Part shown: positions 24,861 through 37,277 of the stretch, piece after piece
Position numbering within the stretch: position 1 is the first letter of the stretch
Layout: every line of letters begins with the position of its first letter
NCBI GenBank assembly: GCA_963749495.1
Contig: CAVVMW010000023.1
Coordinates: 216,006-280,005 of the forward strand
Reading direction: 5' to 3'
Origin: an uncultured bacterium
GTDB lineage: Bacteria; Verrucomicrobiota; Verrucomicrobiia; Limisphaerales; UBA8199
DNA length: 64,000 bases
Translations under genes and position numbers: made by a program
The notes under the pieces: generated by a model
Seen by the model: only the letters and a program-made list of their open reading frames with translations
What the model was told of the DNA's origin: nothing
The model's database searches: none

Positions 24861-26795
24861 ATGAGAAGAATCCTCACCCAAGCACTCGGACTTGTGCCCT
24901 TGGTTTTGTTCTGGAGTTGGTGTCCGATGCTGGCCCCTTTCGACGCCAGAGCCGCCGTCGTCACCTTTACCCAGGACACGCTCATTGACGTTGGCAACAG
25001 CAGTTTTGACGGCCAGGATATCGTCGTCCAGGCTTGCACTGTGACGGCGAACGGAGTTCATGCATTCAATAGCGTCCAGGTGGTCGGCGGTGGCGTGTTG
25101 ACGCATCAGCCTACGACACCGGCGCAGGAGTATTCACTGGTCCTGGCGATTGTGAGCAATCTCGTCGTGGACGCCGCTTCGAGAATTGACGTATCCGGAC
25201 GTGGTTACGCAAATGATGGCGCCTTGGGCGCCCTTACCCTGGGCAACACCAACACTGGAGCAGCCTCGGGCCGGTCGGGTGGCTCATACGGTGGTCTTGG
25301 GGCGCCTGCCTCGGGCGGACAGGCCAACTCGACCTACGGCGACTACCACAATCCCAATGAGCTGGGCTCGGCCGGGGCTGGAACCGATGCCAACGGCGGC
25401 GCGGGCGGCGGGTTGGTGCGCATTAGCGCTGCCAGCGCCCACATTGACGGAGCACTTCTGGCGAATGGGGCCAACGCGGTGGATAGTGGTGACTATGGCG
25501 GAGGCGGGGGCAGCGGCGGAGGCGTATGGCTGCATGTGGGCAGTCTGAGCGGCGGTGGCCTGATTGCCGCCAACGGGGGCGGGCCGGCCACCTGGGGTGC
25601 CGCAGGCGGGGGTGGCCGGGTGGCAGTTTACTACGGCACAGCCAACGGCTTTGATCTGACCAACCAGGTGACCGTGCATGGCGCCAATGGCAATGGCACG
25701 GGTTCGGTGGGGACGGTGTATCTGAAAGAAAGCGGGGCGGTGGGCGAATTGCTGCTGGCCAGCCATGGCACCCCGGCGGGATTGTGGACTCCCTTGGGCC
25801 TGGCAACCGACTCGGTGTTTCAGGTGGAGAACTTGGTGATTGCCGGGACGAATGTGGTCGCGGCCACGGCGCGCGAGATGCCCATCCAAGCCAACGCGGT
25901 CGCGGTCCTCGATGGGGCGGTGTTGACGCACCAGCCAACAACGCTGACGCAGGAGTTCTCCTTGCAGTTGACCATCACTAACGGTCTGCTGGTGGACAGC
26001 AACTCGGTAATTGACGTGTCGGGGCGTGGTTACGTGAATGATGGCACCTTGGGCGCCCTTACCCTGGGCAACACCAACACTGGAGCAGCCTCGGGCCGGT
26101 CGGGTGGCTCATACGGTGGTCTTGGGGCGCCTGCCTCGGGCGGACAGGGCAACTCGACCTACGGCGACTACCACAATCCCAATGAACTGGGCTCGGCCGG
26201 GGCTGGAGCCCAGGCCAACGGCGGCGCGGGCGGCGGGTTGGCGCGCATCAGTGCCGCCAGCGTCCAGATCGACGGAGCACTCCTGGCGAATGGCGCCAAC
26301 GCGGTGGATAGTGGTGACTATGGCGGAGGCGGGGGCAGCGGCGGAGGCGTATGGCTGCATGTGGGCAGTCTGAGCGGCAGTGGACTGATTGCCGCCAATG
26401 GCGGTGGTCCGGCCATCTGGGGTGCCGCAGGCGGGGGTGGCCGGGTGGCGATTTACTATGGCACAGCCAACGGCTTTGATCTGACCAATCGGGTGACCGC
26501 GCATGGCGCCAATGGCAATGGCACGGGCTCGGTGGGAACGGTGTATCTGAAAGAAAGCGGGGCGGTGGGCGAATTGCTGCTGGCCAGCCATGGCACCCCG
26601 GCGGGATTGTGGACTCCCTTGGGCCTGGCAACCGACTCGGTGTTTCAGGTGGAGAACTTGGTGATTGCCGGGACGAATGTGGTCGCGGCGCCGGCGCATG
26701 AGATGCCGATCCAAGCCGGTTCGATCGCGGTGGTGAACGGGGCGATGTTGACGCACCAGCCAACGACAACGACGCAGGGTACTCCCTGCCGCTGA
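24861..26795 (+). CDS. Giant repeat/RHS surface protein, segment 1 of 5
   Basis: The ATG at 24861 gives the signal-like N-terminus MRRILTQALGLVPLVLFWSWCPMLAPFDARA. The listed GTG at 24732 lies upstream of the promoter-like site. This segment contains tandem units 1-2 and the start of unit 3 (VLTHQPTT...VDVSGRGY.NDG.LGALTLGNTNTGAASGRSGGSYGGLGAP...GGGGGSGGGVWLHVGSLSGGGLIAANGG...GGGGRVA.YYG). Confidence 0.8.
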   Translation: MRRILTQALGLVPLVLFWSWCPMLAPFDARAAVVTFTQDTLIDVGNSSFDGQDIVVQACTVTANGVHAFNSVQVVGGGVLTHQPTTPAQEYSLVLAIVSNLVVDAASRIDVSGRGYANDGALGALTLGNTNTGAASGRSGGSYGGLGAPASGGQANSTYGDYHNPNELGSAGAGTDANGGAGGGLVRISAASAHIDGALLANGANAVDSGDYGGGGGSGGGVWLHVGSLSGGGLIAANGGGPATWGAAGGGGRVAVYYGTANGFDLTNQVTVHGANGNGTGSVGTVYLKESGAVGELLLASHGTPAGLWTPLGLATDSVFQVENLVIAGTNVVAATAREMPIQANAVAVLDGAVLTHQPTTLTQEFSLQLTITNGLLVDSNSVIDVSGRGYVNDGTLGALTLGNTNTGAASGRSGGSYGGLGAPASGGQGNSTYGDYHNPNELGSAGAGAQANGGAGGGLARISAASVQIDGALLANGANAVDSGDYGGGGGSGGGVWLHVGSLSGSGLIAANGGGPAIWGAAGGGGRVAIYYGTANGFDLTNRVTAHGANGNGTGSVGTVYLKESGAVGELLLASHGTPAGLWTPLGLATDSVFQVENLVIAGTNVVAAPAHEMPIQAGSIAVVNGAMLTHQPTTTTQGTPCR

Positions 26796-37000: not shown

Positions 37001-37277
37001 CCAGCCCGTGCAGAACACGTTCTTTGTGGAGGGTTTGCCGGCCGGTTCCGTGGCGGGCGCTCCTCCACGCTTGAATTGGTCGAGGGTGGGCAAAACCATC
37101 ACCCTTTCCTGGCCGTCATCCGCGACTGGTTACATAATTGAACGCACCGGCAATTTAGCCGGCGCTGCCACCTGGAATTCCGTGACCAATTCCCTCACCG
37201 TGGTTGGAGATCAAAACACGGTTACTCTGGACATTGCCGGCCAAACCCTCTTCTTCCGCCTGAAAAAGGCAGAGTAA
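33984..37277 (+). CDS. Giant protein, segment 5 of 5 (RHS core end + 904-aa C-terminal region)
   Basis: Removing the A at 34013 restores ...TYAYDNENRLV. Last YD repeats are YEYDAFGNR and YHFDALGNT. The RHS core terminus is RARSFDPAAGRFTQRDPIGLAGGINLYRCTGNDPVNSSDPSGL (PxxxxDPxGL at 34533-34562). Downstream come an Ala-rich helical stretch, a beta-sandwich module (TSHDPNDITGPAGYG...YYLIQFANK), Kelch-like repeats (35.93-37.0 kb) and an Fn3-like end (LSWPSSATGYIIERT). Confidence 0.85.
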   Translation: MVARPGLMRTDNENRLVQAVTPDGTWSYEYDAFGNRVATVQNGQRTEYLIDPFGLGNVVGEFNGSGGLVAHYAHGGGLVSRADGRGESAFYHFDALGNTSEMTDPSGNVLNQYSYLPFGEPLSVAEAVENPFRHVGELGVMHEGHGMEFVRARSFDPAAGRFTQRDPIGLAGGINLYRCTGNDPVNSSDPSGLMVNLWSSYETLSGLIFESGRAVDYLEALRPFLNQGAREQVYATYLRQGLRPALQLALRFNNAGAIEYAAKVLGMNSSLEAEAARQTALAAEQAAAAAAAGEASGARWAAARTIGGKILGGALTVYTLYQGAQAWCQVLSVSGMNDLDYLTDGWLLGVTPVAQAGTRVVTSHDPNDITGPAGYGQQSYVSVDFTMYYLIQFANKTNASAPAQMVVVTNQLPAALDYGTFELGNMGFGTNVVTVPPGRTFYSSRVDARGALGLYVDVQGQFDATSGLAVWTFTSINPVTGGEPEDPLAGFLPPDTNPPAGEGWVRYSVKPLADTADGSQVSAQASVYFDTNPRINTPTITNGLDSLTPSSHVIPLPPTSPPAFTVSWTGQDGQGSGIAGYDIFVATNQAPYGLWLQGTTNSSAAFTGSVGSTYAFYSIATDGVGHRELPPAVAEALTLVAATAPTNAPSLLDGPLMNVARMGHCIGEMPDGSAVVFGGHGQGFVALNSIEIWRPAANSFTLLPTPFTFDSGALVRLADGRYLMAGGAANLGVAPGYNTAQLFDPVAGTVASTGTSMVRPRMSCRGALLTSGKVLIAGGWYDTGSATYGELFDPATGLFAATGALRTPRAQPVVLPTTDGKAVIAGGMGVYGSPSFIEQVELYDPVQNSFSVLTNALFPGETGWALSPEGERTIRDQQTADGRYVLQASRVTNNVTEVVLAIFDPTARKFTKLAASPAFTEPVSAWLPVVSAAENAVYFLSGYNTNSSANLIFRVQRVDLATGQRVASDELSVTNYYPGSSATVLLKDGRLFVTGGTTAIDSQFNFQPVQNTFFVEGLPAGSVAGAPPRLNWSRVGKTITLSWPSSATGYIIERTGNLAGAATWNSVTNSLTVVGDQNTVTLDIAGQTLFFRLKKAE

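Follow-up and report, generated by a model that had tools for sequence, protein, structure and literature searches.

A giant coding region on a contig from an uncultured member of the Verrucomicrobiota raises the question of whether an RHS shell can be carried in the middle of a much longer surface protein and, if so, what such a protein might do. The window, by which we mean the entire 64,000-nt stretch that was analyzed (contig CAVVMW010000023.1, positions 216,006 to 280,005), carries on its plus strand, from 24861 to 37277, five consecutive open reading frames (ORFs) that an earlier note, made from the sequence without database searches, had read as a single interrupted gene for an adhesin-like RHS protein. 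We find that this region is a single gene, not five. With a probability of about 0.6, its product is a Sec-exported RHS protein of about 422 kDa that belongs to a modular family, is displayed on the cell surface or released, and has a stalk-mounted cocoon and a C-terminal fragment that is partly external.

Within nucleotides 24732-37277, five segments free of stop codons are arranged head to tail on the plus strand, spanning 24732-26792 (frame 0), 26702-27463 (frame 2), 27010-31677 (frame 1), 31592-34015 (frame 2), and 33972-37274 (frame 0). Neighboring segments overlap by 35 to 450 nt, and their translations carry on from one another in mid-domain. Four single-base edits yield one ORF of 4,138 codons that extends from an ATG at 24861 to a stop codon at 37275-37277 and encodes a product of 422 kDa. 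Residue numbers used hereafter are those of this frame-corrected 4,138-residue protein, whereas nucleotide coordinates are those of the window, with features of the giant gene all on the plus strand.

Sites 1 and 2 were placed by aligning the DNA of five tandem repeat copies near the start of the gene, and both fall in copy 3. At site 1 (26778..26779), a base is missing after 26778, wherein copy 3 reads AGG-GT and the other four copies read AGGAGT or AGGAAT (alignment column 104). At site 2 (27255..27263), a base is missing after 27261, leaving GGGGGGG (7 G) compared with GGGGGTGG, GGGGGCGG, or GGCGGTGG in the other repeats (column 588). Site 3 is a surplus base at 31612 (GAA-C-GTA), where the window reads ATCGAACGTA and a related contig has the in-frame sequence ATCGAG-GTC. 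Site 4 is likewise a surplus base, at 34013 (TAC-A-GAT; TACAGAT in the window), which falls inside a YD repeat between TYAY and DNENRL and is matched by an in-frame TAT-GAT in an orthologue. Thus, the four frameshifts reported in the earlier note are all located as 1-nt insertions or deletions (indels), and its reading of five ORFs as one protein is borne out both by these corrections and by relatives that are continuous.

Two of these relatives are close. The contig that resolves site 3 (L001, from the metagenome of JGI sample 3300050020) shares 90% DNA identity with the window and reads through this site in one frame, such that its protein P0001, which is 80% identical to the window protein, carries NAIEVINGNPGHV across the site without interruption. 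The orthologue that resolves site 4 (protein P0014 on contig L080, from the same sample) is aligned at 77% amino acid identity in a single high-scoring segment pair (1,279 aa) over residues 2877-4136, which spans site 4 in frame. Among more distant relatives, a scan of one genome per species yielded 78 related loci (the coverage table holds 79), and at 13 of these a single open frame of 2,715-4,243 codons runs from the Gly-rich units or the beta-helix through RHS to a DUF7619-FN3 module, with three of the 13 frames running off a contig end. A Victivallales locus (L002, protein P0143) is aligned at 50% identity over residues 341-3678 in one high-scoring segment pair that lies inside an open frame of 3,940 codons. 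Moreover, a HMMER search of 1.84 billion representative proteins recovered intact proteins with the full architecture, including P0133 (3,898 aa), P0141 (3,956 aa), P0143 (3,789 aa), P0153 (4,410 aa), P0174, and P0176. Intact single ORFs with the same domain order, of 2,850-4,410 aa, are present in metagenome-assembled genomes (MAGs) of many phyla, and the same module order is found in intact genes of MAGs from Victivallales, Verrucomicrobiota, Pirellulaceae, Binatia, Omnitrophota, Acidobacteriota, Geobacteraceae, and Anaerolineales.

We therefore regard the region as one gene because the edits restore the ORF, because relatives that are 77-80% identical are in frame at sites 3 and 4, and because intact full-length relatives exist. 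That five independent genes happen to lie head to tail is a reading already refuted, to which we give almost no credence. Gene calls in the protein database do keep the pieces apart, as P0002 (775 aa), P0013 (1,090 aa), and P0142 (1,470 aa). However, every junction in the window cuts domains and repeats in mid-unit, and relatives run continuously across the junctions. The orthologue search that the earlier note called for therefore leaves neither a gene that lacks intact orthologues nor segments that are separate genes in related genomes: intact relatives were found, and the segments are contiguous in them.

Whether the copy in the window is functional is a separate matter, and the odds are roughly even between a very recent pseudogene and an intact gene that was miscalled by the assembler. 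When the window is compared with its 77-80% identical relatives, third codon positions differ 2.3-2.8 times more often than first or second positions, which indicates that purifying selection acted on the gene throughout nearly all of this divergence. This evidence of selection until recently is compatible with the organism carrying an intact gene and the four indels being errors of consensus or assembly, a possibility to which we assign slightly less than an even chance. Sites 1 and 2 are located in tandem repeats of 825 nt that are nearly identical, and site 2 is in a run of seven G nucleotides, contexts that are error-prone for polishing, and the length of the contig (893,697 bp) suggests a long-read assembly. 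A Type IIG restriction-modification gene elsewhere in the window also seems to be split over two frames. Against this, only one of the four sites is a homopolymer, the four indels occur within 12.4 kb whereas the remaining ~51 kb contain no more than one probable indel, and other long ORFs of the window, which encode 700-1,050 aa, show no break. Programmed frameshifting or phase variation at the G7 run was considered and rejected, as three further unrelated indels would remain.

The Type IIG gene is located at 112-3343 (+), where ORFs 112-1467 and 1373-3343 match positions 312-607 and 692-894, respectively, of a single PADLOC Type IIG restriction-methyltransferase profile of 935 positions. No in-frame start codon is present near the stop of the first ORF, and the 5′ end may run off the window; the two ORFs are probably one gene split by a fifth frameshift. 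The notion that the window is full of frameshifts was discarded, since most overlapping pairs of ORFs are simply adjacent genes, the AraC/HigB/HigA genes and the AAA/TPR pairs being separate genes with plausible starts, and only the Type IIG gene looks split.

The RHS/YD cocoon of the giant protein spans residues 2459-3234 (32234..34562), as defined by profile matches, AlphaFold2 (AF2) modeling, and Foldseek. The Pfam family RHS_repeat (PF05593) matches 16 stretches (E 5e-88) and TIGR01643 (YD_repeat_2x) matches 12, whereas TIGR03696 (Rhs_assc_core) is matched over its full length (1-76/76) with 62 bits against a cut-off of 32.5 and ends at the sequence DPSGL. The AF2 model of residues 2441-3592, built with 47 aligned relatives, has a mean predicted local distance difference test (pLDDT) score of 81, with values of 85-97 in the shell, whose strands start at residue 2459. 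Foldseek comparison of the cocoon model returns Rhs and teneurin shells at E values of 1e-53 to 1e-25. Its best matches in the PDB are RhsA (7q97, E 3e-53), other Rhs cores of type VI secretion systems (T6SS), 9ifo_A (E 6e-50), Tse15, Tse5, RhsP, teneurins, and TcB-TcC. The profiles thus bear out the proposal that the YD repeats end in an RHS core terminus, and the segment-wise AlphaFold and Foldseek analyses support the shell.

The RHS-associated core (34326-34562) contains R3194, D3207, and D3230, each of which is at least 90% conserved in the 47-sequence alignment. Their spacing of 13 and 23 follows the same pattern as R2103, D2116, and D2140, the autoprotease residues of the bacterial teneurin-like protein BiTLP (PMC13018210), and the corresponding residues catalyze C-terminal autoproteolysis in Rhs and TcC proteins as well. 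The cocoon fold is genuine, and at the level of sequence its R-D-D autoprotease motif is intact. By analogy with this motif, we infer that the core would cut the chain after L3234, with the predicted scissile bond located between L3234, the last residue of DPSGL (3230-3234), and M3235.

Downstream of this predicted cleavage site lies a tail of 904 residues (3235-4138) with a mass of 94.8 kDa. The earlier note was correct about the size of this tail, which proves to be a series of spacer, Ig-like, FN3, Kelch, and beta-sandwich modules and is not a toxin domain. The first of these is a helical post-core spacer of 171 residues and 18.1 kDa (residues 3235-3405; 34563..35075), which includes a stretch rich in Ala, an amphipathic helix rich in Gly, and the sequence motif DLDYLTDGWLLGVTP. 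It is followed by a DUF7619 domain, a CnaA-like Ig domain that begins with DPNDITGP, and then an FN3-like domain (residues 3406-3690; 35076..35930), as defined by Pfam and AF2. The DUF7619 match (PF24595) has an E value of 5e-17 and 62.7 bits against a cut-off of 27, and the domain is modeled confidently. In surface proteins of Gram-negative bacteria, DUF7619 has been classed as CnaA-like and as a putative isopeptide domain (PMC12617251). In the 47-sequence alignment its consensus is DPNDIxGP...FEN...FDTN with no near-invariant Lys. Next is a Kelch-type beta-propeller (residues 3691-4040; 35931..36980), for which Kelch_6, Kelch_1, and Kelch_4 all score above their cut-offs and which is common only to the close orthologue P0014 and to P0015 of contig L081. 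The protein ends with a beta-sandwich (residues 4041-4138; 36981..37277, including the stop codon) that terminates in ...FFRLKKAE, and endings of the form ...F[YF]R[LIV]... are found at L006, L010, L011, and L016. On L080, nucleotides 3924-4155, immediately after the main orthologous alignment (1663-3924), match window positions 37037-37268 a second time with 84% identity. This observation suggests a tandem duplication of the beta-sandwich segment, such that the number of C-terminal modules varies between close relatives.

The size of the tail bears on where it could reside. Fragments of approximately 15-16 kDa are accommodated in Rhs cavities with a volume of 32,000-44,000 cubic angstroms (PMC10684867, PMC13018210), and therefore a tail of 95 kDa cannot be encapsulated. 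Within the post-core region, only the 18-kDa spacer is of a size compatible with the cocoon. In a set of 38 distinct proteins, DPxGL and DPND(I)xGP are separated by 103 to 532 residues, with a median of 165, and the intervening sequences are unrelated between clades. A transmembrane-like stretch (a 19-residue window with a Kyte-Doolittle mean of at least 1.6) is present in 16 of these 38 spacers as compared with 1.8% of length-matched controls, and small-xxx-small motifs are three times more common in spacers than in controls. Within the clade of the window protein (P0014, L002, P0153, P0174), the spacer is conserved and retains the Gly-rich helix and the sequence DxDYLTDGWLFGxPP. The profile of the 38 spacers as a set resembles that of two known cocoon cargoes, namely the hydrophobic, pore-forming C-terminal toxin of Tse5, which resides inside the shell and has a mass of 16 kDa (PMC10684867), and the hydrophobic C-terminal domain (CTD) that BiTLP stores in its cavity (PMC13018210).

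The N-terminal half of the protein is composed of modules of a different kind, and the overall order previously read from the sequence (signal peptide, Gly-rich units, beta-helix, cassette, RHS, tail) holds for the corrected protein. Residues 1-31 (24861..24953) comprise the start codon and a predicted Sec signal peptide, recognized by inspection from its basic n-region, hydrophobic core, and A-x-A site, with cleavage expected between MRRILTQALGLVPLVLFWSWCPMLAPFDARA and AVV. Intact homologues likewise begin with signal-like sequences. Five tandem Gly-rich units follow (approximately residues 76-1385; 25030..29013), as revealed by DNA repeat alignment. This finding agrees with the five units of 275-279 residues that had been proposed together with the signal peptide. 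The units contain 23% Gly, and the last is shortened. The DNA copies start at 25030, 25855, 26679, 27515, and 28340, with spacings of 825, 824, 836, and 825 nt, and share 62-93% identity. Copies 1 and 2 contain a 105-nt block (25743-25847 and 26568-26672) that is 100% identical within surroundings of approximately 93% identity, which suggests a recent duplication or gene conversion within the repeat array. In addition, a representative protein of 636 aa (P0154) that is 70% identical to the window protein has only a signal peptide, two Gly-rich units, and the C-terminal beta-sandwich, and represents either a short paralogue or a long gene whose assembly collapsed.

The AF2 model of residues 32-630, which include two Gly-rich units, is of high confidence (pLDDT 93.5; predicted template modeling score 0.92) and reveals an all-beta fold with long stretches that lack regular secondary structure. 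The unit has no match in Pfam or NCBIfam even at an E value of 5 and none among PDB sequences. A Foldseek search of the PDB with this model likewise gave nothing significant (best E 0.65), the weak matches being beta-solenoid adhesins, TPS domains, and pectate-lyase-like proteins, and among predicted viral structures only weak or modest matches to "collagen-like" proteins of giant viruses were obtained. Nevertheless, 5,478 representative clusters contain the 277-residue unit (e.g. window positions 25086-25916, +) at E values up to 1e-3, and 961 do so at E values up to 1e-30, usually as 2-12 copies per protein in proteins of 2,000-7,800 aa. It thus appears to be a very common, uncharacterized domain of giant proteins.

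Between the Gly-rich units and the beta-helix is a putative Ig-like beta domain (residues 1386-1480; 29014..29298) that is conserved at nearly all related loci. The right-handed beta-helix region (residues 1481-1926; 29299..30636), assigned from profile matches and homologues, ends in a choice-of-anchor Q domain. It is succeeded by CARDB-like, PPC-like, Ig-like, and second CARDB-like modules whose boundaries are approximate (residues 1930-2340; 30646..31879). The beta-helix and CARDB/PPC/CARDB assignments of the earlier note are supported to differing extents. The choice-of-anchor Q domain at the C-terminal end of the beta-helix exceeds its cut-off (NCBIfam NF041518, 26.1 bits against 25), whereas Beta_helix of Pfam (E 2.4e-4; homologues carry PF13229) and PPC (24 bits against 25.9) fall just below theirs, and CARDB is undetected by profile search in the window protein itself and is recognized through homologues, being present in eight of the nine that were aligned. 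Finally, a helical linker (residues 2341-2458; 31880..32233) connects this cassette to the cocoon. It is too short for an NHL propeller, matches neither NHL nor any other Pfam family, and is partly conserved in relatives that lack RHS.

Comparison of the related loci reveals that these modules belong to a family with a recurring order, wherein tandem, beta-solenoid-like Gly-rich units, beta-helix/choice-of-anchor Q, and CARDB-PPC-CARDB are followed by a swappable middle, a helical and often hydrophobic linker, DUF7619-FN3, and a lineage-specific C-terminus. Approximately 60 loci have the N-terminal cassette and DUF7619-FN3 without RHS, and carboxypeptidase-regulatory-like stalk repeats take the place of the cocoon in RHS-less relatives. 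Judging from these sequences, the family is larger than its RHS members, and RHS is one of the modules that can be exchanged in the middle. When the tail was used for a database search, more than 200 proteins were matched, and the entire tail is present in the close orthologue. The RHS core, a spacer, and DUF7619-FN3 at 40-57% identity are found together in more than 40 proteins annotated as "RHS repeat-associated", from cyanobacteria, Pirellulales, and other groups. The DUF7619-FN3 module is conserved at this level in more than 100 proteins, and it also ends cadherin, VCBS, RTX, dockerin, carboxypeptidase-regulatory-like, and type IX secretion system-sorted proteins. The C-terminal ends of homologues vary and include dockerin-like segments, transmembrane anchors, and FYR-type sandwiches. 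Given these diverse ends, the signal-like N-termini of homologues, and the choice-of-anchor Q domain, a surface or extracellular location is a good fit. One further locus (L081, 1532-12178) carries the DUF7619-FN3-Kelch-sandwich tail at 55% identity after a different protein of 2,500 aa that has no RHS and no Pfam match; its gene calls are likewise split, into three abutting ORFs of 2,500, 335, and 725 aa.

The suggestion that this is a system of undescribed architecture is only partly upheld. The architecture is real, but because intact genes of the same order recur in many phyla, it is not unique, and the family is widespread, unnamed, and apparently undescribed. The claim that an adhesin-type N-terminal extension is unusual for an RHS protein is only partly sustained. 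A very long adhesin-like N-terminus is indeed present, but Sec-exported RHS proteins with N-terminal adhesin domains are known. These include the large bacterial teneurin-like proteins (TLPs) exemplified by BiTLP (PDB 9ifo; Raoelijaona et al. 2026; PMC13018210) and the stalked, Sec-dependent RHS toxins outlined by Zhang et al., which are typically 1,400-1,600 aa (PMC3482391). Since both have already been described, the word "undescribed" applies to the combination of modules and not to the principle. In a limited literature search, we found no account of an RHS core followed by DUF7619-FN3, or of the family with Gly-rich units and this cassette.

The TLPs are the nearest described parallel, having a Sec signal, a long N-terminal region of diverse adhesion domains, no dedicated injection machine, a YD/RHS shell with a DPxG...DPxG aspartyl-protease core, and a hydrophobic variable segment past the cleavage site. 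Unlike TLPs, however, the window protein lacks an NHL propeller beside the shell (there is no Pfam NHL match) and has only about 120 residues between cassette and shell; its sole propeller, of the Kelch type, is positioned 450 residues past the core. We therefore do not class it as a TLP, a group defined by a superfold of FN-plug, NHL propeller, and YD shell and further marked by a TIP domain in the N-terminal region. Furthermore, the CTDs of TLPs average approximately 15 kDa and are fully enclosed, whereas here 904 residues, including DUF7619-FN3 and Kelch, follow the core and no immunity gene is located downstream. The hosts found here (the Planctomycetes-Verrucomicrobia-Chlamydiae group, Binatia, Omnitrophota, and Chloroflexota) are also mostly outside the six phyla in which TLPs have been reported.

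Metazoan teneurins (e.g. 6fb3) share with the window protein a YD shell that is followed by a C-terminal region too large for this shell. In teneurins, which function in cell-cell contact, this region exits through a gap and folds outside. They differ in having lost the autoproteolytic motif that the window family keeps, in having ABD/Tox-GHH as external domains, and in being type II membrane proteins that contain EGF, TTR, FN-plug, and NHL domains. The Rhs effectors of T6SS (RhsA 7q97, Tse5 8cp6, Tse15 8uy4, RhsP 8h8a) are the best cocoon matches and have the same core motif, but they are proteins of 1,000-1,600 aa that carry PAAR or clade domains, have VgrG partners and immunity genes, and end with the encapsulated toxin, none of which applies here. 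In polymorphic RHS toxins, the last domain is a small enclosed toxin (approximately 15-30 kDa), as compared with the 94.8 kDa past the core in this protein, and a cognate immunity gene is located directly downstream. Such toxins also show C-terminal swapping between close relatives; the spacer examined here is hypervariable across clades and conserved within its own clade. Lastly, fibrillar adhesins and the giant CLIPPER-type surface proteins (with DUF11, DUF7507, and DUF7619; PMC12617251) resemble the window protein in DUF7619, FN3, CARDB, PPC, beta-helix, tandem repeats, length, and variable C-terminal anchors. They are not known to embed an RHS cocoon, however, and DUF7619 in the window protein is single and follows a helical/hydrophobic stretch rather than forming a tandem stalk, with the Lys of the predicted isopeptide triad not being evident.

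On the basis of these comparisons, we propose that the protein would be exported via the Sec pathway and then either stay on display at the cell surface or be released from it. Approximately 2,400 N-terminal residues, with their beta-solenoid, beta-helix, and Ig modules, may form a rigid stalk and adhesin that holds the cocoon off the cell. The core would cleave itself after L3234, and the first ~170 residues (18 kDa) of the resulting 95-kDa C-terminal fragment might be held in the cocoon, whereas DUF7619, FN3, Kelch, and the beta-sandwich would stay outside, like the external C-terminus of animal teneurins. A protein organized in this manner might mediate contact with cells or surfaces and could possibly deliver the segment held in the cocoon to a neighboring cell.

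Several considerations weigh against this proposal, beginning with the fact that the giant gene is not translatable as one protein in the present assembly. Cleavage is predicted solely from conserved residues. The spacer is modeled by AF2 as helical with pLDDT values of only 25-40, and no confident position relative to the cocoon is obtained. The window's own spacer is only weakly hydrophobic (Kyte-Doolittle mean of 0.87 over 19 residues). Moreover, helical, hydrophobic, or Pro-rich stretches precede DUF7619 in RHS-less proteins as well, and for this reason the spacer may be part of the DUF7619 module and not a cargo of the cocoon. No toxin family is recognized in the spacer or tail by Pfam or NCBIfam, neither has a sequence match in the PDB, and no immunity-like gene follows, as the next ORF encodes a 967-aa protein that is not conserved beside homologues. 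The lack of a recognizable toxin or immunity gene and the occurrence of spacer-like stretches without RHS would be expected if the protein were purely an adhesin or structural protein, wherein the cocoon is an empty or self-filled structural or binding module, as in animal teneurins, nothing is delivered, and the function is attachment or cell-cell contact only. Such a protein would also account for the fact that all modules past the spacer (DUF7619, FN3, Kelch) are of a binding type, that RHS-less relatives put stalk repeats where the cocoon would be, and that the spacer is conserved and not swapped in the closest clade. We nevertheless consider this alternative, our main rival explanation, to be rather unlikely. 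The R/D/D motif that metazoan teneurins have lost (PMC13018210) is retained here, the post-core segment is hypervariable across clades and has a median length that matches the capacity of a cocoon, and the strong enrichment of spacers in hydrophobic stretches is reminiscent of the membrane-active CTDs of Tse5 and BiTLP.

The fact that the closest solved structures of the cocoon are T6SS Rhs effectors might also point to a classical RHS toxin that depends on a secretion system, either as T6SS cargo, as a BC component of Tc type, or as a substrate of a type VII secretion system. However, the protein has an N-terminal Sec signal where a PAAR or VgrG-binding region would be expected, and both the 2,400-residue N-terminal extension and the 95-kDa C-terminal region are incompatible with known modes of loading. 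In agreement with what had been noted from the window alone, no T6SS, VgrG, PAAR, Tc, TcB, SpvB, or immunity family was found in its scanned flanking ORFs, and no T6SS, Tc, or SpvB family was found among ten neighboring ORFs of six homologous loci. We judge dependence on a secretion system to be highly improbable. A bolder version of the stalk-and-cocoon proposal is that these proteins form a distinct class of RHS, in which autoproteolysis would free a hydrophobic or helical segment that is stored in the cocoon and covalently joined to external Ig-like, FN3, and propeller targeting domains that emerge through the shell. This version further holds that the helical linker-DUF7619-FN3 unit is a portable, cross-phylum module for display or delivery and that the Gly-rich unit is a very common fold with no solved relative. 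Although it is speculative and, taken as a whole, doubtful, such a protein would combine the "exit" topology of teneurins with an active Rhs protease and could be a missing intermediate between RHS proteins with enclosed toxins and teneurins.

These proteins are of broader interest because the general rule for RHS proteins places the toxin at the very end of the chain, as a domain of a size that the cocoon can enclose, and a widespread family with 500-900 extra residues challenges this rule. By keeping both the cleavage machinery and conserved extracellular modules, the family offers a bacterial model for the rise of external C-termini of the teneurin type. The family also draws attention to three uncharacterized blocks, namely the 275-residue Gly-rich unit, the beta-helix/CARDB/PPC cassette, and linker-DUF7619-FN3, which are shared by thousands of giant proteins from uncultivated bacteria. 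As the copy in the window is interrupted, intact relatives such as the Victivallales protein P0143 are better objects of study.

The surroundings of the giant gene differ from locus to locus. As noted earlier, a gene for an M23 peptidase-PKD protein is located directly upstream, ending at 24735, 126 nt before the start codon. It was considered as a conserved partner and dropped, because neither this gene, nor the 967-aa downstream ORF, nor six other neighbors have a tblastn match in the 79 related loci. The 967-aa ORF (37315-40218, +) starts 38 nt after the giant gene and has a signal-like N-terminus, with no Pfam family and no relative beside homologues. Small downstream ORFs at homologous loci are inconsistent, and the neighbors of six intact homologues are mutually unrelated (histidine kinase, HrpB, a LamG protein, oxidoreductases, CBM96, and BNR proteins).

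Several other genes of the window merit mention. An AraC-family regulator (7251-8282), a HigB-like toxin (7030-7365), and a helix-turn-helix (HTH) antitoxin (6707-7045) lie in a row at 6707-8282 on the minus strand, and the latter two look like a type II toxin-antitoxin pair. At 21532-22518 (+), an AAA_21 ATPase has PADLOC matches to HEC-01A, AbiLi, AriA, and PtuA-type ATPases, and its stop codon is overlapped by a 163-aa ORF (to 23006) of no known family; together, just upstream of the M23-PKD gene, they constitute a possible two-gene defense system. Finally, 9866-12873 (−) and 16809-20944 (+) hold further large ORFs of secreted type, which encode LamG/PA14 proteins of 748 and 254 aa together with ORFs of 1,024 and 354 aa that have no family assignment, and the region is thus rich in genes for large surface proteins.

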